Shown here piece after piece: positions 13,812 through 43,100 of a stretch of 52,656 bases of DNA. The notes under the pieces were generated by a model, which saw only the letters and a list, made by a program, of their open reading frames with translations, ran no database searches and was not told the DNA's origin. Position 1 is the first letter of the stretch, and every line of letters starts with the position of its first letter. Position numbers and translations under genes: made by a program. The stretch spans positions 1-52,656 of IMG/VR virus record IMGVR_UViG_3300011335_000305; one strand, given 5' to 3'. This stretch comes from a virus. Its lineage: Duplodnaviria; Caudoviricetes.

Positions 13812-15296
13812 TTAATAATATGCTGCTCTTTTGCGGTAAATCGGCTCATCGTCTTCATCACTGTCTAACTTAATAAACCCGCCTCTTCTAAATCGCAACA
13901 ACGCCTGAGTTGTGCTATCAACTAAGTCATCGTGGTCGGAGTTTGGAAACGCTGCCAATTCTTCAATTACCTCTTCTGCCCATCTAGTGGGTGGTGCCCA
14001 TATTTTCCCACTAGCAAATAAATCTGCCACTGAATTAACACGGCTTATCTTATCATTACCCCTAGTTGGTGTAAACTCTTGCACCGGTATACCCATCCTT
14101 CTTAACTCAAACACCAGTGGCGCACCGGACGCTTTCGCCTCTACTATACACGCATCTGGCTCCCATTCTTTAAACATTTCAAACGCTTTTGTCTTTAACT
14201 CCGGAAATTCCAGCCGAGCTTTATAAGCATCCAACAGAATAATATTCGGGCTATTGCGGTCTTCGTCCTTATAAAACACGCCCCAAGTCGTACACGCTGA
14301 ATAGTCAGCCCGTTCTGATTTAGTAAAAGCCGTATCCCAGCTCTGAATAATAAACTCACATGGCGGGGCTCGTTCATCCCAGACTTGCCACCACTCCCGT
14401 TTTACAAGAGCACCCTGCTCACTGGTCGGATCCTGTTGATACTGGGCTTGCCACTTAGATAACGGTAACTCAATCCGTAACTTACTTAATTCCTCATAAC
14501 TCCAGAACTGAGGCCAAAGTGGTTTCTCGTTCCTCTTAATAGCTGGCAGACTAATAATTTCCCACTCATCACCGTCTCGCTCAATGATGGCTTTCATAAT
14601 CTTGCCGGTCAAATCTCTCTTTGACCACCTTGTCATGACGATAACAATACTACCTCCGGGCTGGAGTCGCTGTCTTGGTCCAGATGTATACCACTCATAC
14701 ACCTTATCAAAGACGCTTGGATCACTAGAGGCTAACGCTGCTTCCTGTTCCGAATGAGGATCATCAATGATAAGTAAGTCAGCTCCTTTACCAGTAACAG
14801 TCCCGCCCACACCAATAGCAAAATACTCCCCATTAGCATTAGTGGACCAACGACCAGCAGCTTTACTATCAGACCGCAAACTGACATTGGGGAATACTTT
14901 ACCATACCGATCTCCGTCAACTAAGTTCCTAACTTTTCTACCAAAACCCACAGCAAGCCCAGCCGTATTTGAACACTGAATAATCTTCTTATTTGGAAAC
15001 TTTCCCAAAAACCATGCCGGTAATAAATAACTGGCAAACTCCGACTTCGTGTGTCTCGGAGGCATATTAATAATCAACCGTTTAACCTTACCGCTGGCTA
15101 TCTGCTCAAACTTTTTAGCCATTAACTCATGGTGATCGCCATGTATAAATTCCGGCCACATGGTCTTTACAAACTCCATAAAGTCCGACTCACCCTCTTC
15201 CCGCTGTATAGATTGCTGATATGCCGTAGCCAAAGGCGCAAGAGCGTCCTGCTCCTCCTTCGGTAACAGCTTAATAATCTCTAACAGATCATCCAT
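13812..15296 (-). CDS. terL: Terminase large subunit
   Basis: RLIINMPPRHTKS Walker A, LLIIDDPH Walker B, SWDTA and HDDLVDS nuclease motifs. Confidence 0.95.
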   Translation of the reverse strand: MDDLLEIIKLLPKEEQDALAPLATAYQQSIQREEGESDFMEFVKTMWPEFIHGDHHELMAKKFEQIASGKVKRLIINMPPRHTKSEFASYLLPAWFLGKFPNKKIIQCSNTAGLAVGFGRKVRNLVDGDRYGKVFPNVSLRSDSKAAGRWSTNANGEYFAIGVGGTVTGKGADLLIIDDPHSEQEAALASSDPSVFDKVYEWYTSGPRQRLQPGGSIVIVMTRWSKRDLTGKIMKAIIERDGDEWEIISLPAIKRNEKPLWPQFWSYEELSKLRIELPLSKWQAQYQQDPTSEQGALVKREWWQVWDERAPPCEFIIQSWDTAFTKSERADYSACTTWGVFYKDEDRNSPNIILLDAYKARLEFPELKTKAFEMFKEWEPDACIVEAKASGAPLVFELRRMGIPVQEFTPTRGNDKISRVNSVADLFASGKIWAPPTRWAEEVIEELAAFPNSDHDDLVDSTTQALLRFRRGGFIKLDSDEDDEPIYRKRAAYY

Positions 15297-15563: not shown

Positions 15564-15770
15564 CTAAACATCAGTATCATTTCTCTTTTCCATTCTCTCT
15601 GCACTTTGCCTTTGTCCATGCCGTAACCTTTTCATTAAATTAACATACACCTTATGCTCTTCATGCTGAATGATCATCCTGCGGATATACCTGATTAACT
15701 CATTTAACTTAATTTGATCATTTTCTACCAAGTATCTGATATAAAAAGCCACGTCCTCGTCCTGTATCAT
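15564..15770 (-). CDS. Hypothetical protein
   Basis: 68 aa ORF coupled to the TerS stop. Confidence 0.5.
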   Translation of the reverse strand: MIQDEDVAFYIRYLVENDQIKLNELIRYIRRMIIQHEEHKVYVNLMKRLRHGQRQSAERMEKRNDTDV

Positions 15771-16669
15771 ATACCCCCCTCCCCTTTTTTCTCAATTAAA
15801 TCAAGGGGGTGGGTGTCTGTAGAATTATTTTTTTCTAACAGGCTAACACTGTTAGCCCCCTGGGGTGTGATATTTTCTGGGGATTCGATGTGTGGAATAC
15901 TATGCAAGACTGGCTCGTCATGCGTGGGCGCATGGAGGCGTGTGGGGGTGTGTGCCTCCCCGTTTCCCCCGTCCAGATCACCATCCCCCGTCACAAATGT
16001 GTGCGTTTGCGTCTGTGTGTGCATCACATCCACATCTGCATCACTGGTTATGTCTGCGTCTACATGGTCAACATAGTTAACATCGATAGGCTCGTCTACA
16101 TTGTTGATCTCATCCAGTAGTTCTTGTGCGCTTCGCTTGGTCTTCACATGAATGCTCTGGGATCTCTGGATCGCTACTTGGATCGCTTCCATCAGCTTCA
16201 CTCGCAGTGAGTTCGAGTCCACTGTGTGTATCACTTCTGCCCTATGGGTAAACAAGGACACTTCACTCATTTTGCCAATTAGTTCCAGTGCTTTCAATTG
16301 TTGCGCTGGAGGAAGATCGTCATTCAAGGCCATGTTACTTAGCTTGTGTATTGCCATAGTCCTTAAACGAGAGGGTAATAGATATTCCTCCACCTCATTT
16401 GCCATCGTCAGGGCATTCACATAGGTGCTGACATGGGGATTGTTTGCTATCTTCTGTGCGTCTCTACTGGCAGTCTCTCTCTTCCCATTCGTATCGTAGG
16501 CTCTTCGGTATGCTTCTGTCTTATTCCCAGTCTTCACTAGTTCTTCTGCGAATGTCTTTTGTTTCTTTGTGAGTCTAATGTTATTCGGGTTACTTGCGCC
16601 TAACATGATTCTCTCAATAGGGACAGTTTTGAGTCCTTCCTGTATTTCTTTCCTTGTTAGTTTCTTCAT
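15767..16669 (-). CDS. terS: Terminase small subunit
   Basis: LTKKQKTFAEEL...NKTEAYRRAY HTH and LKALELIGK motif; upstream of TerL; disordered C-terminal tail. Confidence 0.75.
   Translation of the reverse strand: MKKLTRKEIQEGLKTVPIERIMLGASNPNNIRLTKKQKTFAEELVKTGNKTEAYRRAYDTNGKRETASRDAQKIANNPHVSTYVNALTMANEVEEYLLPSRLRTMAIHKLSNMALNDDLPPAQQLKALELIGKMSEVSLFTHRAEVIHTVDSNSLRVKLMEAIQVAIQRSQSIHVKTKRSAQELLDEINNVDEPIDVNYVDHVDADITSDADVDVMHTQTQTHTFVTGDGDLDGGNGEAHTPTRLHAPTHDEPVLHSIPHIESPENITPQGANSVSLLEKNNSTDTHPLDLIEKKGEGGI
15841..15857. repeat. 17-bp palindrome copy 1
   Basis: GGCTAACA-C-TGTTAGCC; also at 16766 and 45256. Confidence 0.9.
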
Positions 16670-16782: not shown

Positions 16783-16819
16783 TGTTGTAAAAATATTTCA
16801 TCTTTTTTGCAAATAAAGC

Positions 16820-16848
16820 TTGACAAGCAAATAGCACATACCGAAAAT
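16820..16848 (+). promoter_or_regulatory. Sigma70-like early promoter
   Basis: TTGACA-N17-GAAAAT with an AT-rich upstream tract, ahead of the first plus-strand gene. Confidence 0.6.
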
Positions 16849-16900
16849 GGAATTGTTGTAGCAGATGAATTAATTATTAACCACCTAATAGGAGAAGCAA

Positions 16901-17128
16901 ATGATCAACGAACAAGAAGCAATACAAGAGATTCGCAAACACGCTAACGCCAATTACAACAAGGGTTGGGATGTTGTAGTGGAAGCGTATGACGATGGTG
17001 ATCTACTAGAGGAATTATCTGAAAACGGAATGAATGTTAAGAAGACTATTAAGTCCTTACAAGGTATGGTTCGTTTGCGTAATCAGCAGATGAAAGAACA
17101 TCAAGCTGAAGCGAGATCAAGCTATTAA
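16901..17128 (+). CDS. Early hypothetical protein
   Basis: 75 aa, AGGAG SD; HANANYNKGWDVVVE motif. Confidence 0.75.
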   Translation: MINEQEAIQEIRKHANANYNKGWDVVVEAYDDGDLLEELSENGMNVKKTIKSLQGMVRLRNQQMKEHQAEARSSY

Positions 17129-17181
17129 GGTAATCTGATGATGGGGTTAATCCCCGAAACATTCGAGAGAATGTCATTACC
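17129..17181 (+). ncRNA. Type I hammerhead ribozyme HH1
   Basis: Stem I GGTAAT/ATTACC, core CTGATGA plus extra T, stem II GGGG/CCCC, GAAA, stem III CATTC-GAGA-GAATG, GTC cleavage after 17175. Confidence 0.9.
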
Positions 17182-17201
17182 AACTCTGCTAGGAGAATTA
17201 A

Positions 17202-17477
17202 ATGTTACCAACTGATACAGGAAATTTAGTCACCATCAAGAAGCATGGCAAGGGCAATACGAAATATTATGCCGTCTCTATCGCTTCACCAGTGATCAAT
17301 GAAGACAAGCAATACTTCTTTCGTGATTACACCAGTGCGTTTGCTTATCGCAAGGATGGAGTTACAAGCTTAACTTCGCAAGTAAAACACAACAGTCCTG
17401 AATTGCGCTTATCTGCGCCAATGTCAGAAGTCTCAAACAAGTCCGAATACAACGCTGATAATTTTAGGGGGATTTAA
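17202..17477 (+). CDS. Early hypothetical protein
   Basis: 91 aa with GCTAGGAG leader. Confidence 0.7.
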   Translation: MLPTDTGNLVTIKKHGKGNTKYYAVSIASPVINEDKQYFFRDYTSAFAYRKDGVTSLTSQVKHNSPELRLSAPMSEVSNKSEYNADNFRGI

Positions 17478-18020
17478 TATGAAATTCTACGAAATAGGAA
17501 TGTTCTTCATCTGTGCCGTATTTATTGCCTTAATGATCGCACTATGTCTCGCAGTAGAGGGGGGGAGATTTTATGTATAAATTAAGTGCAATATATTCTT
17601 GCGACTATGGTAACCAAAATGAGGGTGCATATCTTGAAATACTTGGCACATATAAAACAAAATTAGAGGCTGAAATAATTGCCGAAAATTTTGAGTTTGA
17701 CGAAATTGCGCCTAATTTTTTATCAACACAAATTGAGGAGATTTAATATATGATTGCCGTTATCGTCAATACCAACAGTCAGCGAATAGCTGAACATCAG
17801 TGCCAGTCTTGGGCGCAGTGCAGTGAATGGATTGATTCTTACCTTACCTACAACGATCTCAAAAGGGCGTGTTCTGATCATATTGCACATGGTCAACACA
17901 CTGTATGGGTGCGCTAGTGAAATGGATCAATGCGTTCTACGATCTGTTACTGGTTGCTAGTATCGTGATCGTTCTTTATATAATTTTGGGTTCAATTTAC
18001 CTTTACTTAGGAGGAAGTCT

Positions 18021-18206
18021 ATGAATTACGCAGAAGAACAAATGTTGGCAGTAATGCCTTACCCAGTGGATTCTATTCACTACAAAGATGTAATCATTCA
18101 AATGCGATCCGAATATGGTTACACCAAGTGGATGAAAATTACGCCTGAAGAATTTCGCAAGATCGAATTAATCTTAACTGGGGAATATCATGCTCAATAC
18201 GCCTAA
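18021..18206 (+). CDS. Early hypothetical protein
   Basis: 61 aa, AGGAGG SD. Confidence 0.7.
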   Translation: MNYAEEQMLAVMPYPVDSIHYKDVIIQMRSEYGYTKWMKITPEEFRKIELILTGEYHAQYA

Positions 18207-18381
18207 TCAGATAGAACACTTCCGTTTACTTACTTTACGCCAAATGCTCAAGCTTGAATTACTAGGCATGAAGCGTAGTGGGAGATCAGCTTACGCCATC
18301 ATCAAAAGTGAGTTAGGACTAAAGGGCAATAAGAAGTCCGTCTTTGATCAGCTATCGGATATGTTGGGCAAGTCAAACTGA
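18190..18381 (+). CDS. Early hypothetical protein
   Basis: 63 aa; LKLELLGMKRSGRSAYAIIK motif; stop codon lies inside the HH2 core. Confidence 0.75.
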   Translation: MLNTPNQIEHFRLLTLRQMLKLELLGMKRSGRSAYAIIKSELGLKGNKKSVFDQLSDMLGKSN

Positions 18382-18423
18382 AGAGTCTTCAATAGACGAA
18401 ACTGGTGCGAACCAGTCTTTGAC
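18372..18423 (+). ncRNA. Type I hammerhead ribozyme HH2
   Basis: Stem I GTCAAA/TTTGAC, CTGAAGA, stem II GTCT/AGAC, GAAA, stem III CTGGT-GCGA-ACCAG, GTC cleavage after 18417. Confidence 0.93.
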
Positions 18424-18442
18424 AAACTGCTAGGAGTTAAAA

Positions 18443-18787
18443 ATGGAAACACAATTAGATTTGAATAGCTTTACTGGGACTGAGAGTTATTGGAAGACTT
18501 GTTTGTTTGCACCGAAGCTAGTGCATACTGATGGCGTTCAATACTTTGCTGACCATGCAAATGCCTACTGGTTCTTAGATATCGTTGCTACCGAGTATTT
18601 TAACGGCTTGGCTGACGATTTCTTGAGTATCAAACTGGTGGTTCACAGTGGTCGAGCAAATATCACTGTTGAGGATGGTGATTGCAACATCATCAAAAGC
18701 CGAGAGATAGAGTTTACGGATTGCCCTGAGGGGATCTACAACTTCTTTTTGACCAACAATGTATTGATGTTGACTTCTGAATACTAA
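18443..18787 (+). CDS. DUF6876-like protein
   Basis: FTGTESYW...TDGVQY...AYWFLD...IEFTD...LMLTSEY signature. Confidence 0.75.
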   Translation: METQLDLNSFTGTESYWKTCLFAPKLVHTDGVQYFADHANAYWFLDIVATEYFNGLADDFLSIKLVVHSGRANITVEDGDCNIIKSREIEFTDCPEGIYNFFLTNNVLMLTSEY

Positions 18788-18796
18788 CAAAGGGAA

Positions 18797-18813
18797 AGGG
18801 GGAAACCCCTTTT
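18797..18813 (+). terminator. GNRA hairpin, possible weak terminator
   Basis: AAGGGG-GAAA-CCCCTT with a short T tract between genes. Confidence 0.4.
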
Positions 18814-18820
18814 AAAAATA

Positions 18821-19036
18821 ATGGACTTAGACGGCAAAAAAGGTTTGGCAAGGGACATTTCCCAGTATGGCTACCACGAGCATAAAGGTTATGTTTGGGA
18901 TGAATACGATGCCCAAGGCATTTTCTTAACAAGGGTTTGCGAGACTTGTGTAGAAGAGAAATTAGCAGTTTATCGTCCTGAGATTCTTTCAGGATATTCC
19001 CAAGCTGATGTAGACGAATCGATTGAGGAGAATTAA
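18821..19036 (+). CDS. Early hypothetical protein
   Basis: 71 aa; YDAQGIFLTRVCETC...YRPEIL motif. Confidence 0.65.
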   Translation: MDLDGKKGLARDISQYGYHEHKGYVWDEYDAQGIFLTRVCETCVEEKLAVYRPEILSGYSQADVDESIEEN

Positions 19037-19038
19037 TT

Positions 19039-19224
19039 ATGGGTAAATTTACACTGGAAATTAACACGGATAACGATGCATTTAGTGGCGAAGATCTGCA
19101 CATTGAATTGCTAAAAAAATTAACAGATGTTGGTTATCGAGTTAGCGTATTGCGTGAGTTAAATGGGATCATTGTTGATTCCAATGGCAATACTGTTGGC
19201 GTTCATCAATTTTTTGGAGAATAA
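19039..19224 (+). CDS. Early hypothetical protein
   Basis: 61 aa; INTDNDAF...DSNGNTVG motif; GAGGAG SD. Confidence 0.7.
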   Translation: MGKFTLEINTDNDAFSGEDLHIELLKKLTDVGYRVSVLRELNGIIVDSNGNTVGVHQFFGE

Positions 19225-19225
19225 C

Positions 19226-19486
19226 ATGGATATTAAATTTTTTGCAGATCCTGCACATGGATGGGGTGAAGTGCCGATTAGCCTGATTAAAGAATTGGGC
19301 ATAGCTGACCAAATAAGCCACTACTCTTATATGAAAGGTGATAACGCATACCTTGAGGAAGACTGTGATCTGTCAGTCCTTATGAACGCCTTAGAAGCGC
19401 AAGGCATTACTGCCAATTTTGTTGAAGTATGGACAAACAACGATAGTCCAGTGCGTAGGTATCAGAGTTTTAAATTATCAAACTGA
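19226..19486 (+). CDS. Early hypothetical protein
   Basis: Start MDIKFFADPAHGW after GGAG; YLEEDCD motif; stop codon inside the HH3 core. Confidence 0.75.
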   Translation: MDIKFFADPAHGWGEVPISLIKELGIADQISHYSYMKGDNAYLEEDCDLSVLMNALEAQGITANFVEVWTNNDSPVRRYQSFKLSN

Positions 19487-19527
19487 TGAGCCTGTAAGGG
19501 CGAAACTGGCGTGAGCCAGTCTTTGAT
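19477..19527 (+). ncRNA. Type I hammerhead ribozyme HH3
   Basis: Stem I ATCAAA/TTTGAT, CTGATGA, stem II GCCT-GTAA-GGGC, GAAA, stem III CTGGC-GTGA-GCCAG, GTC cleavage after 19521. Confidence 0.93.
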
Positions 19528-19549
19528 TAACTTGCTAGGAGAAATTATT

Positions 19550-20080
19550 ATGCCAAATTGGTGCTATAACAATTTAACGATTGATGGAACGACAAAGGGT
19601 GGAAAGATTCTTGCTGAAGCTTTTAGACCGAAATATCCGATGGATGATGGAACATTGGATGCAAATCCTTTCCAAGACTTGATGCCGATTCCTGAAGATT
19701 TACGCATTGTATCAGGGTGGTTTGGTGATGGGACTGACAAACAGAATGAAATGCAAAAGCTATACGAAGCCAATAAGGAAAAGTATGGTTTTGAGAATTG
19801 GTATCACTGGTGCATAGCAAATTGGGGAACGAAGTGGGATGCCACTGTTCAGGATTTTGATGACAACAATATCAATGATATTCGTGTTTACTTTGAGACG
19901 GCTTGGAGTCCACCATTGGACTTTTTGAGTTGGTTCTGCGAACAACATCCTGATACAGTTTTTACCCTTAACTACGATGAAGAGGGTTGTTCGTTTGAGG
20001 GTGAAACTACCCATAATCCTGAAGATGGTTTTGTTGACAATTGTTGGACACCTGAAATGGCCTTGGAGGATGCAGAATGA
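19550..20080 (+). CDS. DUF1281 / YubB (Api92-like) ferredoxin-fold protein
   Basis: MPNWCYN start, WYHWCIANWGTKWD and FETAWSPP motifs. Confidence 0.8.
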   Translation: MPNWCYNNLTIDGTTKGGKILAEAFRPKYPMDDGTLDANPFQDLMPIPEDLRIVSGWFGDGTDKQNEMQKLYEANKEKYGFENWYHWCIANWGTKWDATVQDFDDNNINDIRVYFETAWSPPLDFLSWFCEQHPDTVFTLNYDEEGCSFEGETTHNPEDGFVDNCWTPEMALEDAE

Positions 20081-20364
20081 ATATTTGCGAAGATGGCTAT
20101 TCAGGTAATAACGATCCGTTCTTTCAAGAAATATCAGATGATTGCGATGAAATTCAAATGATTCCCGATACTCTTGATGATGGTTCAGTGGTGGTTAATT
20201 TCGATGTTTACGACAAAGAAAATAACGAAGTAATCAAGACTGGTGGATATGTTCTCATTCGCAAGGAAGAGGATCTGAAAGATTTTTACATTTGTGTATT
20301 TAACAAAGATGGTGATCAAATGTCTCAAACCCGATTGCCGTTTGACTGGTTAAGTCTTGACTAG
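20077..20364 (+). CDS. Acidic early hypothetical protein
   Basis: 95 aa, coupled ATGA overlap. Confidence 0.65.
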   Translation: MNICEDGYSGNNDPFFQEISDDCDEIQMIPDTLDDGSVVVNFDVYDKENNEVIKTGGYVLIRKEEDLKDFYICVFNKDGDQMSQTRLPFDWLSLD

Positions 20365-20435
20365 TGCAGTAATCCTGATGCCCAGTTGGGCATTGGGATT
20401 GCCATTGGGGTGATCATAACTGCTAGGAGATTAGT

Positions 20436-23042: not shown

Positions 23043-23313
23043 AGAATGCCAAGGCAGAGTGCCTGTTTTCGTTGGTGGGGATTCCCCTTTTCAACTAGTT
23101 GATTTCCCTACTAGGAAACAGTTTGACGAACTTTACAGAACGAGTAACGAAGAGTTTAGGGATAGGTATTGGGATGTTCTTAAAATGCGAACAAAGGGGT
23201 ATAGTTTGACCGATGTAGGCAAAAAATACCTTTTGACTCGTGAAAGGATCAGGCAGATTGAAGCTAAGTTTTTAAGGAAAGTAGCAACTTCTTTAAGGAC
23301 TGAGACGCTTTGA
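23032..23313 (+). CDS. Sigma70 region-4-like HTH protein
   Basis: GYSLTDVGKKYLLTRERIRQIEAKFLRK. Confidence 0.8.
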   Translation: MNLKECQGRVPVFVGGDSPFQLVDFPTRKQFDELYRTSNEEFRDRYWDVLKMRTKGYSLTDVGKKYLLTRERIRQIEAKFLRKVATSLRTETL

Positions 23314-24085
23314 AATTGCCGACTCTTCTATGGTAATCATTGAAATCTTCCCCGACTGTTTCGGAGAGCCAATAAGGTTTGCCTGTTTCTTTGGCAGTAG
23401 TTTCTCCGACACTGTTGGGGTCATTATCAGCAACAATGATCCCTTGCCCGATGTTCCCCGATACGAACTTCATATTACTTGCACTAAAGCACACATAGAT
23501 TGTGTAAGGAATGTTAGTTTGACTCATGGACTGCCGAATAGACAATCCAGTAGCATACCCCTCGCAAAGTATGGAAGTCCCTTTTGTGCCAATAACAAAG
23601 GTTGCGCCTTTGCTTGTTTGACCATAGAGGAACTTTTTATGCCCCTCGTCATTTATGAGTTGGCATCCTACCAGTCTGCCGTCTATTCGCATGGGAATTA
23701 CTAAAGTTTTTTTGTCGCCATCTATTAATACATTCCCTTCTTCGTTGACGAAGCCTTTTTTGATCAAATAGGGATGCGTATCAAGGTATGTTTGAGATAG
23801 CAAGTCTTCAGCTTTTTTGGCAGCCTTTTGCGCTTCGTCATTCCTTTTTTGCATAGACTCCTTGATACGGACTCTTACTTCTGTTGACGAAGACTTACCA
23901 TCTGAAAACCAAGTAACTGGCTTCTCCATTGTTGCCCAGTTTTGCACCCACCCAACATTACCTAAAAACTTATACCGACCATTCCTTGATCTTGGGTGGT
24001 CTTCTGTTGGCGTTGCTACCCATTTGTCGTAGACAAGACCACTCATGATTAACCCATGTTGCCTTGCAAATTCTTCAAATATCAT
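23264..24085 (-). CDS. Toprim-domain primase-like protein
   Basis: LVIPM...GCQLI...KKFLYG, LCEGYATGLS, IVADND and DFND Toprim motifs. Confidence 0.85.
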   Translation of the reverse strand: MIFEEFARQHGLIMSGLVYDKWVATPTEDHPRSRNGRYKFLGNVGWVQNWATMEKPVTWFSDGKSSSTEVRVRIKESMQKRNDEAQKAAKKAEDLLSQTYLDTHPYLIKKGFVNEEGNVLIDGDKKTLVIPMRIDGRLVGCQLINDEGHKKFLYGQTSKGATFVIGTKGTSILCEGYATGLSIRQSMSQTNIPYTIYVCFSASNMKFVSGNIGQGIIVADNDPNSVGETTAKETGKPYWLSETVGEDFNDYHRRVGNFKASQSLKKLLLSLKT

Positions 24086-25566
24086 CTTTTCCCCATTTTG
24101 TTTTGGCGTTTACTCCAAATAATATTTCTGTGTTTAATCCATTTTTGAGTAGCTTCTGACGGGATCTTGGTTATCTCTCTTAGTCCCCTAGGCCATACGC
24201 CAAACCTATCTCGATACTTATTACTTGCCCAATATGGGTTGTATTCTTTTTGTTTGGCAATGTGCAGTAACTCTGAATAAAAATCTTGTTTGATCTCTTT
24301 TGGCACTTTATTGTTAAACCCAAGCTCGATCAGCTCACCTTCAACGGCTTCTATCTGCTTTCTTTGCTTGACATAGCCACAGATTACACAAGAAAGACTA
24401 TTCCTTGCCCATAGAGCCGAGCATTTTGGGCATTTTGACTCGGCTTTGATAGTTTCTGACGGTTCTTTCTTTGCTTTTTCAATATGTTCATCAAGAGTTT
24501 TAACGCCATTGGCGTAGATTTCTTCCCATTCATCCCTGAATCGTAGGTAATTGCCTGAATGATCGAGCCACAAAGCATATTCTTTTGTCGGATAGCTACG
24601 CATAACTCTGCCTAATTGTTGAATATGACTTGACAAAGACTTGGCAAATGGACGAGCCGAAACTCCTATCATTACATCGGGAACATCAAACCCCCTTGTC
24701 AGAATATCAGTGGCAATTAAGCCATGAATTTCTGTATCAGGTTTAGAAAAATCCTCGATTACTTCTTGCTTGTATTCGGAGTTATCCAAGTAGGATATGC
24801 TAATAAAGTTATAGCCTTTCCTTGCAAACTGTTCCACTAAGTCTTGTCCATGCGCTACTCCGGCACAGAAAACAATGGTCTTTCTTGGTCTACCAAAGAT
24901 TTCATAGGTCTTTTTCTCCCATTCAGCCACAATATCACCAGTAATCTTCATGCCACGCTCAGTTACTTGGTCAGGACTCCACTCTCCAGCTATCTTTTTA
25001 ACACCTGTCATGTCGATTTCTTTTGAAATGAACACTCTCAGTGGTGCTAACCAGTCATTGTTGACCAAACTTTCCGTTGTTGCACCACAAACCACATTTG
25101 AATAGATGTTACCCAAGCCTGTAGTAAATGGCGTAGCAGTCAACCCAATAACTTTAATCTTTTCATTGGTTTTAATGATGTTTGTTATCTGTTGACGAGT
25201 AATGTGGCATTCGTCAACAATCAATAAATCAATGTCAGGGAAGTTTTGCCGTCTTTCCAGTGTTTGCGAAGAGCAAATTTGTATCTTCTTAGTAATATCT
25301 TTCTTGTAGTGGTCAGCCTGTAAAACCCCATGATCTAAATTATATTTCGTTAGACGAAGACTTGTTTGATCAATCAGAACAATACGGTCTAGGATCATCG
25401 CAGAACGCTTGTATTTGTCTGCCGTAGCCTTCATTAAGAAGATAGCCACCTCTGTCTTGCCAAAGCCTGTAGGAGCGTATAGCAACTGTGTTCGATGACC
25501 ATCTTTAAAGCCTTGGCGCAATGCATCAACCACACCGATTTGGTGTTCACGCAATTCGAGTTCCAT
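24082..25566 (-). CDS. Superfamily 2 DNA helicase
   Basis: APTGFGKT, IVDECH, GLTATP, GFDVPD, QQLGRVMR, C-terminal CxxC pairs. Confidence 0.92.
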   Translation of the reverse strand: MELELREHQIGVVDALRQGFKDGHRTQLLYAPTGFGKTEVAIFLMKATADKYKRSAMILDRIVLIDQTSLRLTKYNLDHGVLQADHYKKDITKKIQICSSQTLERRQNFPDIDLLIVDECHITRQQITNIIKTNEKIKVIGLTATPFTTGLGNIYSNVVCGATTESLVNNDWLAPLRVFISKEIDMTGVKKIAGEWSPDQVTERGMKITGDIVAEWEKKTYEIFGRPRKTIVFCAGVAHGQDLVEQFARKGYNFISISYLDNSEYKQEVIEDFSKPDTEIHGLIATDILTRGFDVPDVMIGVSARPFAKSLSSHIQQLGRVMRSYPTKEYALWLDHSGNYLRFRDEWEEIYANGVKTLDEHIEKAKKEPSETIKAESKCPKCSALWARNSLSCVICGYVKQRKQIEAVEGELIELGFNNKVPKEIKQDFYSELLHIAKQKEYNPYWASNKYRDRFGVWPRGLREITKIPSEATQKWIKHRNIIWSKRQNKMGKR

Positions 25567-25569
25567 GAT

Positions 25570-26391
25570 TTACTTCTTTTTTTGCAGAGATTTGATTTGA
25601 CGAATCAATTCAGCATTTCTTGACTGATACATGTCTCTGCTATCTCTTAAAGTTTTGTTTTCCATTTCTAAGATCTTGATCGTCTCTCGCAACTCTTTTA
25701 CTGTGTCCTGTATGTCCTCTATTTCGATGTCTGTGGCATCTTCCCATCGATTAGAGGCGATAATGTCTTTCAGTTTGGCATTCTCATCATCCAAGTTCTC
25801 TATCGTTGTAGACAGTTCTTTTAACTGGTCTTCAGTTTTGTCATAAACTGGCTTTTCTTCAGCAACATTTGTCTTTAATGATTGCGTGTTTACTTTTATT
25901 TCTTTTTTGTTTTTATCAATATATATTTTTTCAGTAGTAAATTCCTTTAACTTTTTAGCTTCAATCATTGCCAACTTGACACGACCAACAGTCATTGCAG
26001 ATACTTTTATTTTTTTGGCAATCATGGTGTTGGTGTAATTTTTATACACAGGATGATTGAACATAATTTCAATGGCATGACGATTATCAGCATGGCTTGG
26101 TCTTAAGCCGTTGTCTCCGTTTGCCGTCAATGAAAAGTCTAATGCATCATCTTTAGTGCCTTGACGAAGATCAACATCTACAGAGACAGTGCCATTTTTC
26201 TTATTGGCAAAGTATCTGTGAAAGCCTGATGAAAGCCAGTAATCAGAGCCGTCATGGAAGACAACCATTAAAGGAAATTGATGCCCTTCCTTCATGAGTT
26301 CAGCGTATTCGTCTACGGCTTGTGTATTTAATTCTTTACGAGTTTGTGTGCCACCGTCTGTACGAATGGCTAATAAATTCAAAGTTTTCAT
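25570..26391 (-). CDS. ParB/Srx-domain protein with HTH and coiled coil
   Basis: TQTR...VDEYAE...YWLSSGFHRY ParB-like motif; NTMIAKKIKVSAMTVGRV HTH. Confidence 0.75.
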   Translation of the reverse strand: MKTLNLLAIRTDGGTQTRKELNTQAVDEYAELMKEGHQFPLMVVFHDGSDYWLSSGFHRYFANKKNGTVSVDVDLRQGTKDDALDFSLTANGDNGLRPSHADNRHAIEIMFNHPVYKNYTNTMIAKKIKVSAMTVGRVKLAMIEAKKLKEFTTEKIYIDKNKKEIKVNTQSLKTNVAEEKPVYDKTEDQLKELSTTIENLDDENAKLKDIIASNRWEDATDIEIEDIQDTVKELRETIKILEMENKTLRDSRDMYQSRNAELIRQIKSLQKKK

Positions 26392-26417
26392 TTTCTCTCC
26401 TAGCAGTTGGAAATTCC

Positions 26418-26863: not shown

Positions 26864-27225
26864 AAGTAAAAAGACAATAGTTTCCCCAAGGGTGATAAGC
26901 CCTCATCCATTACGAAGTAACTATCGCAACTAATGCTCCCTAAGGTAATGTTCAATCGTCATAGTAGTTGTCTCACCTCTGTCCACTATAACTTGTGTGA
27001 TACCCATTTAAGTCCACGAGGCACGCTATCGGGTGAAGGATCAGCCTATGTTCTATTCCACGCAACCCATGTAGGTTCTTGATATCGTTTGGAGTACGTC
27101 AGTACTAGGAATGACACACAAAATGGCATAAATTTATACACATGAAACTAAAGTATATAAAAATATTCAATTTGTTTTCAGAGAATTGTTTCAGTCTCCG
27201 GTGTCATTCCTAGCAGTTGAGCCTA

Positions 27226-27299: not shown

Positions 27300-27387
27300 G
27301 GGTGTGGATAAGCAGGCATCCATGCCATCATTTGATTAACCCTGCTAGGAGTAGACACCAGATTGATGGCAGTACATGGGTTTGTAC
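27261..27387 (-). ncRNA. Putative trans-acting antisense sRNA
   Basis: Own promoter and terminator; stem TGCCATCA/TGATGGCA encloses a loop with CTCCTAGCAGGGTTAATCAAA, complementary to early-gene leaders. Confidence 0.7.
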
Positions 27388-33783: not shown

Positions 33784-34125
33784 ATGAAAATAATTAATTT
33801 ACCTTGGCCTCCGAAAGAATTATCCCCCAACGCCAGTATTCATTGGTCTAAGAAGGCAAAGTACAAAAAATTGTATCGGGAAGCTTGCTGGGTTTTAACC
33901 CTAGAAACTAAGCTAACAGTAGATACATTAGGGAAAGTCCCTATAGAGATAACCTTTTACCCACCCGATAAAAGACTGCGGGATGCGGATAACATGGTTG
34001 CCAGTATTAAATCTGGCTTGGACGGGGTAGCTGATGCTTTAAAAGTTAATGATAGGCAATTTTTGCCTACCTTTATTTTTACAGACGAAGTTAAGGGGAT
34101 GGTTTCTGTTCGGCTTGTAGTCTAA
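33784..34125 (+). CDS. rusA: RusA-like Holliday junction resolvase
   Basis: LPWPP...LSPN, FYPPDKRLRDADN...KSGLDG...VND motifs. Confidence 0.8.
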   Translation: MKIINLPWPPKELSPNASIHWSKKAKYKKLYREACWVLTLETKLTVDTLGKVPIEITFYPPDKRLRDADNMVASIKSGLDGVADALKVNDRQFLPTFIFTDEVKGMVSVRLVV

Positions 34126-37100
34126 ATCGAATCGTTTGCTCTAAGATTCTTTCTTTGGTTAACTTTAAGTTATTAATCTCAGCCCGTTTTTGTTCTGCAT
34201 TCCTCTGCGACTCAGGTAATTTTTCAATTCTACGGATATTGGAATTAATTTCAGACAAGTCCTTACCAGCTTGTTGAGTAAAGCCATACGCCTTGATCTC
34301 ATTAATATGATCTTGATACCATGACTTTGCTTCTGCCGTTTTCTGATTCTTCATCAAATCTCGGTATGTTGCCATAGCCACTTCGGTACGTTGTTTTAAG
34401 TCATAGAATAAGTCTTCTCTACCTCTTGGTACGTCAGGCGCTACAAAGCTTCCATACAGAGGATTAGAACGCTCTTCTGGCATTGGTCTATTATTCCCTA
34501 GGGCATTAGACATCCACATTGCTGTAGCCGCCACAGTGCCCCCTAAACCACGCATGAGGTGATCTGCTTCCATTGGGTTTAATAAACGCTTTTCTTTACC
34601 CCCTGTAACAGAGCTTAACCATTTGCCAAGTTCAGAAGTTGCAGCATTGTACTGCTCAAAAGCGGCTAAGTTTTCCATACCTCTTGGTGTAATCCTACCG
34701 CCAGTAAAGAAGTTACGGTTTAATTTAATTTCAGCCAAGGGCTTTAATCCTGTTGGCACTGGTCCCGATCCCAATGGACCAGCAAACGCATCAATAAGTC
34801 CTTCATGTAGGGCTTTACGCAGTCTTTCGTTATCTACTGCATCCTTTGTTCCTTCTTTTGTTATCTGATTAAATAACATTTCTGGAATAGACTTAAATAG
34901 ATAGCTGGCAGATGTATGCATTGGTATTAACAAAGTATGATCGTAACCAACTTCTTTCATTAACTTCTTAGGAATAACAAAGTTACGCATCTTTGTTTGA
35001 TCATCCATCTTGTTATATTCGTCATCATCACCGATGGCGTAACAATATAAAAGAACGGTTGCCGATAAGCCAAGCCCTGCAATAGTTAAACGAGTAATAG
35101 CTTTTTGACGATCCAGTCCTTTTAAGTTGCCACTGACACTAGTTACTTTTGCCCCAGTTAACTTTTCAATTCCGGCAGCTGGCACTTCCATTAACGCTTG
35201 TGTTAGTACGTCAATTTGCTGGGCAAACGCATTCATAAACGAAATAGTACGGTTTAAGAATTGCGCTGTAGCACTGTTGCCACGCTTTTCAAAGTCAATC
35301 ACATTGGTTGCAGCCAGTAGCGCTGCTCGCATGTCACCGCCAACAACTTTGCCATTAACAATCTTACCGCCAGATTCTATAATTTTCCGCATAAACACGG
35401 CTCTACGCTGTGAATAGTCAGAGGCATCACCAATCCGATCAAGCAATTTAGTAATCTTGGCGTAAGTAGACTGGTTAAGCAAACCCATTTCCTGTTTAAA
35501 TTCTTGCTCAGCAGTTCTTGCCGTAGAAGTAAAGCCACCAATACCATGTGATTTAAGTATTTGTACAACTGGATCATTGCTATTTAAAGCTTTAATGGCG
35601 GAAGAAAATACTTTAGTCCACAGGGCTAATGGGTTTTTTACACCTGTTACCAGCATAGCCGTTGGCGCATCCATAAATACTTGTTTGGCTTGGAACGCTG
35701 GGGAAATAGTTACTGCTCTGCGTAAGCCGTTGGCAAAGAATGATAGAACCGTTCCCATAGGCACTTGAATGCTTTCAATACCAATTGCAGCTTGAGCAAT
35801 CAGTGGATCAGCAATTTGAATATTTACCTTGCGACCATTAACTAAAATCTTAATAATGCCTTTTGAATGATCTTCTTGTGGGAATACTTTTAATTTGCCG
35901 TTCTCATTACGAACACCATACTCTTGGGCAATTCGGTTCATGGCGTAATTTTTAATAACATTACGGACTGTAACCATAACATTGTGAATCATGTTGTCCA
36001 CAATATCATCAATATCTAAATCAACTTCACCTTCTTTAAATTTTTGTTCTCTAGAAACATTTCGCACTGCTTTTGTGCCATAAGTATATTTTGGCGTAGC
36101 AGGACGGAACCAGCTTGCAGAATGAACATCCTCTTGGTCATCCATAATACGATTCCAAGGAACGTAATCCTCAATTTCTCTTAATGATTGAGCACGTCTT
36201 TTATCAATCATCTTTGCAAACTCCATGAAATCTACCATGTTTTTGTTAACAGCGCCCCAGTTATCCATCATCTGACGGAGTTCTGGGTGGAGTTTTTCTA
36301 AGTCACTGTATTTGTCAATCTCTTCATCGGTTAAGTTAACCTTGTCTAAAGCTATCTTAATATTTCGTAACCCTAATTCTGCATCGGCAATCTTGTTTAA
36401 CAGTGTTAACTGACGCTCTACACCAGTAGCCGGATCCATTTGTTCTGTTTTAAGATCTTCTAATTCACCCTCACGTTTCAGGTATTCATTCACAATAGAA
36501 CGGGAACGCTTAGCTTCAAAGTAAGCTTGAATTGCTTTGTAAGACAGCTCTCGACCAATACGATTTTCTAACTTATGTTTTAAGTCAATCACATTAGCCA
36601 TTGAATACTTGCTTTCTGATGCAGCAAACATTTGCTCATTTGGGTCGAATGCAAGCATTCCATCTAAAATTACTTGAGTTCCTATACGGGTAGCTCGTAA
36701 TGCTTGATTCATTGCCACAGAAGCTACAGCACGATTTTGGCTATCCTCTAGCATACGCCCATACCTTGCGGCATCAGCAGCTGTTAAGCCGGCAGTAAAG
36801 TCAGTTGTCTTAATCCTTGCGGCAAGAACTACACGATCTACATTGCCAACTAAATTAACTGCGGCCTGTTTAGGGTTGACAAGCATATTCCTACCAATAC
36901 GATTGGCTTCCTTCATGCCACCCATCAGCTTGTCATAGTTTGAGCCGGATACAGACAGAGGAGCATCTGGTCTATCTTTTAATATATCTTCTGTGGTTTT
37001 AATATTGTTAATAAAATCTAGTTTAACTTTGCCTTGGGTAAGGTAATCCACCAACATAATATTATGGGATCTTGGTGTTTCACCTTTAATCAACTGATTG

Positions 37101-40100
37101 AAAGCTTTGTAAATTGGGTACTGGTTATTAAACCCAAATACGGATTTTAATCCTTCAAATAACTGTTTGACAAATTGTACAAACCGATGCCACGGAGTAC
37201 CCATTTTGGTAGCAAATAACCGTTCAGCATTAACAGCCCAGTATTCAGATGGGTTAATGTACTGATACATATCCATGTTTGGGCACAAAGATGCTGCAAT
37301 ATCAAAATTTTCCTTTGTTGGTCTTTCAATAAAATCTAAGACAGCTTTGAAATATTTTGCATTAACAGCGTCAGTGTTCTTTTTAATTGCAGCGTCTAAC
37401 GCTTTTTTCCAAGAATCTATAATGGCATCTCTGGTCTGAGGTGTCATCATATTTTCTAAGGTATGCATTAATTCATGGCGAATCGTAACTGGACTGTTTG
37501 TTCCAAGACCTTTGTACAAAGTAACCAGTTTTGAAAATGTATTGTAATTTCCAATAGAAGAGCCTGTTTCATTCTTACGAACAGATAACTTAATGCCAGT
37601 TAATAAAGCTGGAGTTCTGTCGTAAAGGTATCGAATAACATTTAAAGTTTCTTCGCTGATATTGCTTTTAGAAAACTCATCAAAAGCTTTCTTCATAAAA
37701 TGTTCAGGCGTATCATTCTTTGGCGTAGTTAACTTGATGTCTTGTTTTAACTCATCAGACAATTCAAGTAACCTAGATAGTTCACGCTGATAGCCAATGG
37801 TTACTTCGCCCTTGGCAACTTTCTTCATAATGTGAGCAGAGCGTTGACGGAGTTTTTTATACTCCGCTATCTGTTCATCATGGATACGTTTAATGGCAGC
37901 CGTTACTTTTTCATTAGGTTTAAATGTTATTGCATTAGTTTGAATAGGTTTTTGGGTATAGCTAGTTAATGTATAACCTTCACTATGGGCTTGACGGTCA
38001 TACTCTATAATTTTTTCAGGAGACAATACACCATCTTCCAATTCAGCGCCATTAAAAAAACTAACTTCAACAGGTATATATTTCCACCCTAATTCTTTTG
38101 CCACCATAATGCGATGGTTTCCTTCGTTTACATAAGGAGTACCATCTTGGTAAATGTTTAAAAATGGAGCATAGTGTTCTGGCTCTTGCTCTGGTCTAAA
38201 TGCCGGCAATTTATTATTCTTACTCATGTAATTAGTTAGCCATTTAATGGAGTCTGAACGAACATTTTGTTGTTCAGCTCGCATACCTTGCAATTTTGCT
38301 AATACATTTACAGGAAGAAGAACTTCTCTTTCACGAACACCTTCACGTCTAAATGATGCAGTAACAGAACCAAATCTTTCTGGTACTCCATATTTATCTA
38401 CACCATCTTCTTTTGACTGTTCTCTCTTACCTCTTAACCATCCACCGCCCGGATTATCCGTTCTTAATGTCAGTAGCTTGGCTGTTGGGAACGCCATGTT
38501 GTTTGTAGGAATAATGGGGCCAAATAATTTCTTCGCCTCTTCCTTTTTATTCAAAGCAATTAACGAATCACCTTTTTCATTTATTAAATAGTCAATAACT
38601 TTCTTTGCTGTTTCCTGTTCATAAGTAAAGGCATACATCGTGCTACCTGACTTATAAAAATCACCCAGTAACTTTGTTAATCTGCTATCTAAGAAATAAA
38701 TGCCACCAGTCTTCTTTGAGCTTGGTACGTTAAATTGAATTTTTCTATTATTACCAATAATTTGTAAAACTTTATCAGCTGTGCCAATAGTTCCGTTAGC
38801 TTCTGTTAAAAACTTTATAGCATCATCTGCTGATTTTATTTTTGTTGGTGCATCACTTTGTGCTTTGGTAAAGTCATATGTCCTTGGCATTAAAACACCT
38901 TGCCCAGTTGTGCCATCCGATTTTGTATAGGTCATAATCTGACCTTGGTTGTCTACAACTGGAGAAGCAAAGCCAGATAAAATGTTACCAGTTACCATCC
39001 AGCGTTTTTCACGCCTAACTGTTGCACCCTTGTCAAACAAATCCATTAAATCAATATTTTCTGCTACGCCAGTTTCAGGGTTTAACCAATTAATAATACC
39101 CTCTTGCGCTAATTGATATGTAGTACCAATTTGAGAAAAGTTTATTGAAGTAGATTTAGCTTCACCATTTGCCAAAGCAATTGTCATTTTCCAATCAGAA
39201 CCAGCAGCTGGATTCTTTGTTTTACCTTTTGTTTCTACGTTGGTGATCACGCCATAAACAAAAACACCTTGGTTATTCTTAACAGAAATAGCCGTACCAA
39301 TTGGGTAAGCTCTTAAAATAGTCTTAATGTGGTTTTCATTTAGACGTAATTGGTCTAATGTTTTATTAGTTTTTACTTCGTCAGCTTCACTTTCTTTTAA
39401 TTCAGCTTTCTTTTGCTCAATAAAAGCTTTCATTGCGCCACTGAGTACACCATTCTGCTCATTGCCAATTTGTCTACCGCTTACATTACCCAAATTTTCA
39501 TCAATTATTTGTTTTACTTCTGCCTTGGAATATGGCTTAACAGTACGCTTAACATCAATTTGTTCCATAAATGCTGGTCTAGCAAATAAAGAATCACCTT
39601 TTGATTCAGTAATGGGTGTAGAAGATAATGTTTCAGCATCAAGGTCAAAAGCCTTAGCTTCAAGCTTATTGGTTCCCATACTGTTTTCACGCTCAAGCAA
39701 ATCGTTGTAGCGTTCAACTAAGTCTTTGTAGATTTCCTCTTGATCTTTAATTGGCAATATGGGAATGTAACCCGTTAATTTACGAATGTCTTCTTCATCA
39801 GCTTCAGACGGATCATCCGATATTTCTAATAATTTTTTACCACCCAATGCTTCATAAATTTCTGGGTTGTCATTTAAAAACTCTTGAGCAACTTGACCAC
39901 CGTACTCATTCATAAAGTCTACAGCACCTTCAGCAGTTACAGCAGACTTACGAGAAGCTGTTGTATTCGCATTAAGTGATGCCATTTTCTTTAACAGAAC
40001 GGCAGCTGGGCGCATTTCTGCGGGAATATCAGCCATCATCTGTGAATAAAACGGAGGTTGAATTTGTCCAGTTCGATGTACCCGCCCAAGCATTTGCATA

Positions 40101-43100
40101 TGCGTATCAATGTTCTTTTCAGCCTGAACAATAATCATATGGCGCTTTTTTGTATTTTTTAATCCTTTTTTGGCGTGTAAAGATAAACCAGTAGAGCCGG
40201 CTTGATTTAATATGATTACTCTAATATCACCGTTATTAAATGCTTTAACTGAGTTAACACGGTCTTTAATACTGGGTGAACGAGGCATTAATAATGGCGT
40301 TCCACTCTCATAATTTATAGTTAATGTACGACCAGTAATCTCACCTGTTTTATATCCAAGTTTGCGTAATTCGCTATGCATATAATCAATTGGTGACATT
40401 GGAGCAGAACCAAACCCAGCATTATTAATAAATGTTTTAATGGCGTTGTATTGCTCTGTTAATGTTGGCCCAAGATCTTGATCAGTCAAACGGTAGATTT
40501 GAAAGTCTTCTTTTTTAACTGCTCCGGGCGGTTTAATAGTTACTGTACGTTGTTTTTCTAAATATCTTAAATACAAATCTTTAAAGGATAAGTTAATTGG
40601 ATCACCAGTTTTAAGTCCCATTTCATCTGCATATTGCTGTAAGAATGAGCCCATTGTATTAGATACAGTTAATACAACTTGCTCGCCACGCTTTAAACTT
40701 TCTACAGCATGTTTAATAGAATCCTGTGCCTTCAATGACAATAACATTTGGTCAATCAAGTTATGCATTGTTGAGCCAAAGTTAGCAGATTGGACTTGGG
40801 TTTTTTCTGACCCTCCCCTTATTATTGAGCCACGCTTATCTAATTCTTTTTGTATTTCACCTACTGCTTTTTCCTTCTCCCTAGAGAATGACAAAATATC
40901 ACGCATAGACGTAGCCATGTTTTCGGCAGTAGCTTTGTCAACTTTAGTTTCAACAGTGTTATAACTTACACCGGCAAATGTACGCTCTCTACGAATATAC
41001 TGTCCTACTTGTGTAAGCATGTTTGCAACAATCTGTTGCATCGGAATGCCGCCATTTTTAATAGCTTCACCCAGTTCTGATATGTTATCCACAGCAAGGC
41101 TCATATCTGTGCTGGAATACAAATCCATTACATCTGGGCGTTTAGCGTAAGTGGCTGATGAAAAGAAAGAGCCAAAAGAATTGTTAACCATTTCACGAAT
41201 AAATGAAGAACGGCCTGTGCCTTCTTCATCGGATTTTTTACTTGTGCCGCCAGCGTTATGGCTTTCGTCTAAGATTAAGTATCCGTCATTACCAAAATGA
41301 TTTAAAAAAGCTTGGCGTTCTGTTGGCGCTTTTTTAACCATTTGTGTCTGAGAATAATTAGTAAAAATAACCTTGTAACGACCAAGACTGTCATCTGCTC
41401 TTAATTTCTTAAACAGTGCCGTTAATTTATACCCTGATTTTTTTTCATCTTTTAGAGGTGCTTTTAATATAAAATCTTTTTCAACGGGCTCACCATTAAC
41501 TTGTCTTATTAATGTGTAAGGCACTGGCTCATTGTTGTTAGTTACTATTATTTTAGGATTATTGGACTCTAAAGCTAACTCATCAGTCATGCCAATATCA
41601 TCTAAATCCCTAATCATGTCAGAGTACAGATTGGGTTTTTCTGTCATAAATATTGGTGTTTTGCCATTTAACAAAGCATACTTAATCATGCCAGCTACAA
41701 CACGACCTTTACCAACACCTGTTTGATCGCCAATAATAAATCCTTTACCAGCTTCAGCGTTGCTAATTGCTAATGCAAGAGCATCTATTTGCTCAGCCGA
41801 GAATTTCTCTCTTAATGTTTCAGGATCCATTTGTAACGCTTCGGCTACATATTCATCAATATCGCCAAATTGTGCTTCCAGTTTAGTAAGAGACTGGTCA
41901 ATGGATTGTGCCATTGCTCTTGGAGCTAATGTTCCAACAGCTGCGGCTTGAGAATGCGGAGTATAACTTACCTGATTCTCGGTTTCAATTTCTTCACCCC
42001 TACGGTCTTTTAATCTAGACTCGATTGGTATACCTGTGTCAGTGCTAGGTTCACCCAATCCTCTAGGCTCGTTTCCTGTATCGCTTGTTCCGCCTCTGGG
42101 CTGTTCTCCTTTAGCTGTGCTGGAAACGGGTTTTCCAACATCTGCAGGTTCAGGTTTGTTAACAGGTTTAGGTTGTCCTTCACTAACACCTGTCCCAGTT
42201 GATTCGGGTTGTCCACGCTTGGTAGGTCCAGCTTCAGACACGCCTTGTCTGCCGCCTCCTGCGGGTTCTTTTCTTCCAGCACTAGGTTCATTACCCTCTC
42301 CGCTAGGGCGTTCACCCAATCGCTCTGACTCACCTCCCCTGCCGGTAGGTTCACTGATGTCAGTTCCACTGGTGCCAATATTTTCTCCGGATACCATGCT
42401 AGATTCATTTAGCTTCTCCTTTAACTGTTCATAGTTTTCAATAATTTTTGGAAGATCCCCAGCCGGTAATGATCTTTTAGGCAGAGTAAATCTAAGGTTT
42501 TTTGATTCCCATTTTCCGTTAATAACAATAACATCAACAGGATAACTAGCGCCCTGTTTAGAATACATATCGCCAGCTATCGTAAAGTGATCTACTACGT
42601 TGTAATCTTTATATAAATTAACGTAAAAATTACGTTTAGATGCGCTACGATATCCTTCACGCCTTCCTTCTTCTGTATTTGATTGAACGCCACCAACAAT
42701 TAAAACAGCACGACCATTACTTCTCATGCTTTGTAAAGATTTCATAACAATAGCGTGATCAATTTCTCTAGTTTTAAACCCGTCAATATTAAAATCTTCC
42801 CCAATAGATCCAAATGGAGGATTTTCAATAACAACATCTACAGTACTTGGTGTTACTTTTACACCGTTTTCATTAGTAACTTTGGCACCAGAAAGTACTT
42901 TTTTAAGCATTTCAAAACGGCTAGAGTTAAGCTCGTTTGCTATTACCTTCTTTGGGTTAGCATCAATCAACAGCATTCCGTTACCAGCTGTTGGTTCGTA
43001 TACGGTAGTGCTATCTGTTATTCCAGCCAGTTTACTAGCTACAAATGCCAATGGTGCTGGGGTTGAATACGCCTGTTCTCTAACACTGGTTGAAGAACGC

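Follow-up and report, generated by a model that had tools for sequence, protein, structure and literature searches.

Hammerhead ribozymes arranged in tandem are known from prophages, where they have been proposed to break long phage transcripts down into mRNAs of gene length, and polycistronic transcripts of ~2 kb from three tandem arrangements were cleaved in vitro (Perreault et al. 2011, PMC3088659, in the portion of that paper drawn on here). The same portion describes a hammerhead of the haloviruses HF1/HF2, termed 'HHphage', located 13 nucleotides (nt) before the start codon of an early polycistronic transcript and with a mapped 5′ end at most 3 nt from the cleavage site (PMC3088659). The purpose of bacterial and phage hammerheads was called still undefined in the sections used here of a 2019 review (PMC6765202). 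Here, we analyze the IMG/VR virus record IMGVR_UViG_3300011335_000305, one entire record of 52,656 bases from a tailed phage with an estimated completeness of 83% (the whole of it is called the window below), in which an inspection of the letters without database searches, the sequence-only reading, had placed three type I hammerheads between small genes of a putative early operon.

The window resembles the prophage tandem hammerheads in that several ribozymes lie close together and flank single genes or short blocks of variable identity (PMC3088659, same portion). The prophage examples, however, are integrated in cultured bacteria, include types II and III and often carry pseudoknots (PMC3088659), whereas the family of the window is all type I, has an open stem I of 6 base pairs (bp), a long stem III capped by a GNRA loop and a fixed leader, belongs to uncultured phage contigs and is known here from sequence alone. 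With HHphage, as described in that source, the window shares a hammerhead a few nucleotides upstream of a start codon, but HHphage belongs to an archaeal virus, has a variant core and is present as one copy at the transcript head, not between cistrons (PMC3088659). The transcript-cutting idea is not new, as it has been in print for the tandem prophage hammerheads since 2011 (PMC3088659, portion as above). Added here are a large unannotated family, a fixed ribozyme-leader cassette, which as an architecture is a modest addition, and the natural exchange of the ribozyme with a possibly bistable hairpin. The titles and abstract openings from our search of the open-access literature describe no hammerhead that is linked to a conserved leader or that trades places with a hairpin.

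The early genes of phage T7 are separated by RNase III sites, at which intercistronic cuts produce a structured upstream 3′ end and a short downstream leader. A hairpin of the window with an internal bulge (20361-20408) resembles such an RNase III substrate; the hammerheads differ from T7 in that RNA catalysis and a 5′-hydroxyl (5′-OH) product stand in place of a protein enzyme and a 5′-phosphate product. RiboJ, an engineered insulator from a plant satellite ribozyme that is placed after promoters, likewise positions a self-cleaving ribozyme just before the ribosome-binding site, where it removes variable upstream RNA and makes expression independent of context, whereas the arrangement in the window is natural and lies between cistrons.

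Type I hammerheads in the window and in related phages

Complete hammerhead cores closed by three helices are present on the plus strand at all three places where they had been claimed (Table 1). Every copy consists of CUGANGA, a 4-bp stem II, GAAA, a 6-bp stem III, a U, a C and the 6-bp stem I, and in each of them stem I is open while stems II and III are closed by loops, which is the type I topology. The core of the hammerhead class (C3 U4 G5 A6 N7 G8 A9 and G12 A13 A14, in the usual position numbering) and the cleavage triplet GUC occur in all three copies, and the stem III caps are indeed all GNRA loops (GAGA, GCGA and GUGA in copies 1, 2 and 3). As the sequence-only reading had noticed, the stems differ between the copies and yet pair: standard pairs fill 48 of 48 cells, each of the 16 pairs forms in 3/3 copies, and 11 of the 16 are changed on both sides. 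None of 500 shuffles matched these pairing and compensatory values, and sliding the 3′ partner lowers the three-copy pairing to 29-43%. When each copy is folded alone, the minimum-energy fold is the three-way junction (z-scores -1.81, -2.20 and -2.42). The core pattern CUGANGA...GAAA...GUC was found three times in the 52,656 bases, always on the plus strand, against an expectation of 0.56, and one of 100 shuffles reached three. With filters off, a covariance model built from the three copies retrieved only those three from the window, at 71-75 bits, the next match scoring 13 bits.

Copy 1 starts directly after the UAA stop of the upstream open reading frame (ORF), and the ORFs before copies 2 and 3 have their UGA stop within the core (18379-18381 and 19484-19486, respectively). 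Both of these ORFs close with Ser-Asn-stop (18370-18381 and 19475-19486, plus strand), the codons of which are provided by the 5′ strand of stem I and the core UGA, hence the overlap of ribozyme and coding sequence. Stem I is nearly identical in copies 2 and 3 (5/6 positions) and different in copy 1. Within 19460-19527, stem I of copy 3 can pair instead with an upstream AUCAGAG, and within 17129-17210 a UUACC repeat a short way into the next ORF offers the 5′ strand of stem I in copy 1 an alternative partner. Loop II of copy 2 resembles the loop of the Rfam type I consensus.

Related loci were collected from IMG/VR phage contigs with two queries, the large terminase (TerL, 80 loci) and the DUF6876 protein (79 loci), and the two sets share contigs. 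Both were searched with the three-copy covariance model and, because the matches overlap, unique sequences are counted below. The DUF6876-oriented set gave 109 matches in its 79 loci, all on the strand of that gene, and the TerL-oriented set gave 33 matches in its 80 loci, all opposite TerL as in the window. With the overlap, the matches number 142, and together with the window the two sets hold 78 unique ribozyme sequences. The first alignment has 54 distinct rows; 98.6% of their cells are paired, 13/16 pairs are changed on both sides, and the pairs adjacent to the core, nearly invariant in keeping with hammerhead rules, are G10.1-C11.1 in 54/54 and A15.1-U16.1 in 52/54 rows. This alignment was fitted to the model; its pairing signal is specific, since at most 50% of the cells were paired in a slid-register control. 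CUGANGA is kept in 75 of the 78 unique sequences and GUC in 69, with AUC, AUA and UUA occurring once each; the remaining six are matches that end early within long stem III forms. Hammerheads tolerate any base but G at position 17, which follows U16.1, and AUC, AUA and UUA fit this rule. Sequence is conserved much more strongly in stem I and the leader than in stems II and III.

The core, the topology and the covariation across these 54 distinct relatives strongly support the identification of the three elements as real type I hammerheads. The hammerhead model matched none of the four closest cultured phages, an empty answer that shows little. A pattern for the subfamily had no copy in the genomes of 185,579 species and found 52 stretches in viral contigs. 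In some relatives, stem III is expanded by 30-70 nucleotides (L113:5868-5961, L086:5709-5802, L136:5841-5960 and L110:4504-4582), and several of the expanded forms hold two copies of a ~17-nt repeat (AUGAGUCCGCAAAUUGC-like). The added nucleotides may form an insert to which a protein or ligand binds, which could make cleavage conditional.

The sequence-only reading had named the Rfam hammerhead models as a check, and in E-value mode these matched copies 2 and 3 below threshold; copy 1 had no hammerhead match, even at an E-value ≤10. Copy 2 scores 29.3 bits against RF00163 (Hammerhead_1; gathering score 34, E-value 1.9e-4) and aligns with it end to end (positions 1-45 of 45). RF00163 shares the topology and the core but expects a very short stem III, and copies 1 and 3 were not retained under it. 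Copy 3 alone matches RF03152 (RAGATH-1 hammerhead) in a partial alignment at 26.5 bits versus a gathering score of 56.3; this model is likewise type I, its stem I being short and its stem III long, and copy 3 aligns over its ribozyme part, whereas the upstream hairpin of the model lands in coding sequence here and is not conserved. A match of copy 3 to RF00008 (Hammerhead_3; 28 bits versus 48.5) was set aside as a misfit with a permuted alignment. At gathering scores, Rfam also gave 0 matches in 15 related loci (146,792 bases) that hold many copies. These misses are probably explained by the long stem III together with the inserted U. We file the elements under the hammerhead ribozyme class and not under one Rfam model, a gathering score being the threshold of a model and not what defines the class. 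As the family is invisible at curated Rfam thresholds, ribozymes of this kind are probably under-counted in viral metagenomes.

Table 1 Coordinates of the hammerheads, leaders, hairpin and neighboring genes in the window
Feature	Position	Strand	Details
Hammerhead 1, type I	17129-17181	plus	stem I 17129-17134/17176-17181; core CUGAUGA 17135-17141; extra U 17142; stem II 17143-17146/17152-17155; GAAA 17156-17159; stem III 17159-17164/17169-17174, GAGA loop; predicted cut 17175/17176, after C17175
Hammerhead 2, type I	18372-18423	plus	core CUGAAGA 18378-18384; loop III GCGA; predicted cut 18417/18418, after C18417
Hammerhead 3, type I	19477-19527	plus	core CUGAUGA 19483-19489; loop III GUGA; predicted cut 19521/19522, after C19521
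Leader 1	17182-17201	plus	AACUCUGCUAGGAG ribosome-binding motif; start codon 17202, downstream of copy 1
Leader 2	18424-18442	plus	AAACUGCUAGGAG; start codon 18443 (DUF6876 protein), downstream of copy 2
Leader 3	19528-19549	plus	UAACUUGCUAGGAG; start codon 19550 (DUF1281_C/Api92-like protein), downstream of copy 3
Leader 4	20416-20435	plus	AUAACUGCUAGGAG; start codon 20436, after type B element
Type B element	20361-20415	plus	directly before leader 4, in the position of a hammerhead
Promoter candidate, sigma-70-like	16820-16848	plus	TTGACA, 17-nt spacer, GAAAAT; top site of the region scan, 10/12
Block of ~25 small ORFs	16901 to ~23040	plus	between the terminases and the helicase region
DUF6876 protein gene	18443-18787	plus	
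DUF1281_C/Api92-like protein gene	19550-20080	plus	
Small terminase and large terminase (TerL) genes	15767-16669 and 13812-15296	minus	
Helicase, Toprim protein, ParB-like protein	23264-26391	minus	

The common leader and the hairpin at the fourth site

After stem I, all three copies continue with AAC, zero to two bases and GCUAGGAG, and the start codon follows 6-8 nt on. The distance from the predicted cut to the start codon, put at about 25-28 nt by the sequence-only reading, was measured as 26, 25 and 28 nt for copies 1, 2 and 3. Among the relatives, it amounts to 22-30 nt in 77 of 84 contexts (mode 25), and GCUAGGAG lies within 25 nt of the cut in 54 of the 84. The leader motif is also found in the window without a ribozyme, at 20421 (plus), 26397 (minus) and 27343 (plus) and, with one mismatch, at 27207 (minus). 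The sites at 26397 and 27207 have promoter-like hexamers upstream, as judged by eye, and a common upstream UUAAUCUGUA string. At the operon head of the relatives, a TTGACA-type site and a short hairpin are followed by the same leader.

Away from the ribozymes, copies of the (A)ACUGCUAGGAG motif occupy 26397-26405 (minus), 27207-27215 (minus) and 27343-27351 (plus). The region 26864-27216 (minus), ~350 bases that hold no ORF longer than 49 amino acids, begins at a leader-like motif, and in its predicted fold (-93.8 kcal/mol, z-score -2.79) the leader copy pairs with a downstream complement in a long-range helix. This region is possibly a non-coding RNA; it had no Rfam match at an E-value ≤0.1.

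The fourth leader of the plus-strand block is preceded by a different structure, which we call type B. Its long hairpin (20361-20408) comprises ~21 bp with a 2-nt bulge, takes in the upstream UAG stop and, folded alone, reaches -32.6 kcal/mol (z-score -3.28). A 7-bp hairpin (20397-20403/20409-20415) uses the 3′ strand of the lower stem of the long hairpin, and the two are mutually exclusive. The loci of the relatives contain 39 distinct type B copies, of which the 24 aligned in register by MAFFT were used for covariation: the extended hairpin is 98.5% paired and the small-hairpin alternative 99.8%, the 7 bp themselves being paired in 100% and compensatory in 3/7 pairs. In three sequences, a single change in the shared strand comes with compensating changes in both of its pairing partners. 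As this double compensation may be a single evolutionary event, the case for a true two-state element is suggestive only. Type B had no Rfam match at an E-value ≤1, the best (E-value 1.2, HBV epsilon) being not believable, and twister, twister-sister, pistol, hatchet and HDV-like models were absent from its Rfam matches. One class of type B, class 'a', contains CUGAUG and was considered as a decayed hammerhead; this was rejected, as the other classes lack CUGAUG.

Leader contexts were classed as hammerhead, type B, promoter-like or other by simple regular expressions, by which some may be misfiled, and on this basis 64 of 146 unique leader-plus-gene contexts follow a hammerhead, 47 type B, 19 a promoter-like site and 16 something else. 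An orthologue group starting with MGLDMY has a hammerhead upstream in 9 contexts and type B in 18, and the DUF6876 gene, which stands behind copy 2 in the window, has type B upstream in some relatives. Hammerhead and type B replace each other before the same gene and therefore seem to do the same job. By analogy with T7 early RNA processing, we favor the view that type B would be cut near its bulge by an enzyme of the RNase III type; the gene for RNase III (PF14622) was not found in the 83%-complete record, in which PF00636 was not searched. We see only a slight chance that type B is itself an undescribed self-cleaving RNA, in which case the clade would switch freely between two ribozyme classes for making mRNA 5′ ends.

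Proposed cutting of the operon RNA and competing explanations

The motif, its covariation, its strand bias, its intergenic position and its spacing of 22-30 nt are direct observations, and the last three fit the claim of the sequence-only reading that the hammerheads cut an early polycistron. We infer from them that the elements are genuine, probably active type I hammerheads that would cut a single rightward polycistronic RNA in vivo into units with defined ends. Copy 1 would fold directly behind the upstream stop codon and copies 2 and 3 across it, each would cleave itself after GUC, and the type I topology would leave nearly the entire ribozyme on the upstream product. The upstream RNA would thus keep its stop codon, end in the compactly folded stems II and III and carry a 2′,3′-cyclic phosphate, and the downstream RNA would begin with a 5′-OH and the six former stem I nucleotides, followed by the AAC-N-GCUAGGAG leader, as a short unstructured leader with the start codon 25-28 nt from its end. 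Cutting into units with defined ends would, we infer, make stability and translation independent of the upstream sequence.

The occurrence of the same leader after promoter-like sites, hammerheads and type B fits three ways of making an mRNA 5′ end, so that promoter, ribozyme and processing hairpin may be three devices that set this end before a standard leader. At type B, once a cut of the RNase III type had been made near the bulge, the strand set free would refold as the small 5′ hairpin. The comparison of the hammerheads with RNase III processing of T7 early RNA, drawn by the sequence-only reading, may therefore apply literally at 20361-20415. The same site, with a long hairpin in place of a ribozyme before the same leader, weakens the claim that the polycistron is cut without host enzymes.

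Several points weigh against this reading as a whole. The hairpin site itself argues against a scheme that is fully free of enzymes, and both the 'early' timing and the single transcript are assumptions. No Rfam hammerhead model reaches its gathering score in the entire window (0 matches). Stem I is open and measures only 6 bp, with A-A or U-U mismatches bordering it in the copies inspected. Fast natural hammerheads use a tertiary contact between stem I and loop II, although membership in the class does not need it; neither this contact nor a pseudoknot or internal loop was found by eye, and the same kind of check, by eye only, gave no extended stem I, no pseudoknot joining loop II to the flanks and no pairing between leader and ribozyme. 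With their flanks, copies 1 and 3 have competing stem I folds, and ribosomes terminating in or beside the core would unfold the ribozyme. In copy 1, the core region contains an additional U (17142) between A9 and G10.1, a detail absent from the sequence-only reading. A nucleotide added at the same place in a viroid hammerhead is reportedly the subject of one paper, known to us by title only. The extra U after A9 recurs in 19 of the 78 unique sequences, which makes it a tolerated variant of the family.

Among the other explanations, the one to which we give a small but appreciable chance is that hammerhead and leader form a ~70-nt linker cassette for gene exchange by homologous recombination, the ribozyme activity being secondary or insulating the new gene. 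The constancy of stem I and leader relative to stems II and III would suit such a linker, as would the contigs in which the same orthologue stands behind a hammerhead in some and behind a hairpin in others. Moreover, 28 hammerhead sequences recur in at least two loci, 5/28 with unrelated upstream flanks and 2/28 before unrelated downstream genes; a third apparent change of the downstream gene (L157/L158) turned out to be a 2-nt indel in the leader and not a different gene. A linker, however, would not need three compensated helices or a core that is intact in 75/78 sequences, and exchange by recombination is in any case compatible with processing of the transcript. Cleavage could also serve as a shut-off device, the 5′-OH marking the downstream message for decay, or conditional cleavage timing the loss of the transcript. 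In Bacillus, the 5′-OH product of the glmS ribozyme is degraded by RNase J1, a precedent for such an outcome, and a site directly upstream of the ribosome-binding site permits either outcome. The competing folds at copies 1 and 3 could make cleavage conditional, but they are not conserved where neighboring genes differ, including where it is the upstream gene that differs, and the three window copies have no ligand-binding or sensor domain; we regard a shut-off function as improbable.

Successive cleavage and ligation could join the segments between two ribozymes into circular or spliced RNAs, since the segments 17176-18417 and 18418-19521 would carry 5′-OH and 2′,3′-cyclic phosphate ends, and the near match between stem I of copies 2 and 3 means that the 5′ end of the 18418-19521 segment could pair anew with copy 3. 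The possibility was raised by Perreault et al., who, in the portion of the paper drawn on here, report having looked for such products and detected none (PMC3088659). Together with the differing stem I of copy 1 and the lack of a match to an RtcB-type ligase (PF01139) in the 83%-complete record, this makes circular or spliced products highly unlikely. That the elements are chance look-alikes or dead, inactive relics is hardly credible: in favor of this view, all Rfam scores stay under the curated thresholds, but the compensatory changes, the invariant core, the strand bias and the fixed spacing extend across dozens of diverged contigs.

Whether the hammerheads provide a defined, context-free mRNA 5′ end can be addressed directly by comparing natural variants. 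The clade is an unusually clean system for this purpose, in that dozens of type I copies are each followed at a fixed distance by a standard leader for ribosome binding, and the natural replacements of the ribozyme before the same gene, by a promoter plus hairpin or by the long and possibly bistable hairpin, make its function testable.

Gene layout and further features of the record

The promoter candidate precedes the plus-strand block of small ORFs, most of which had no family match or function in Pfam and PHROGs; the matches among them are DUF6876, DUF1281_C/Api92-like and three PHROGs of unknown function. The label 'early operon' is a reasonable guess from this layout, that is, from small unannotated ORFs behind a promoter-like site. 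By the large terminase, the closest cultured phages are only 54-58% identical (two Pelagibacter phages and two aquatic isolates, 023Pt_psg01 and DSL-LC04), and none of 50,697 GenBank phage records matched 16800-19900 at the DNA level.

A single minus-strand ORF of 4,217 codons spans 34091-46744 and is followed by an ORF of 944 codons (46753-49587) without a Pfam match. Between the DUF6876 gene and the next ORF, a G+C-rich hairpin (18795-18812) is followed by UUUU on the plus strand; the region scan flagged it on the minus strand, and it could be a weak terminator within the operon.

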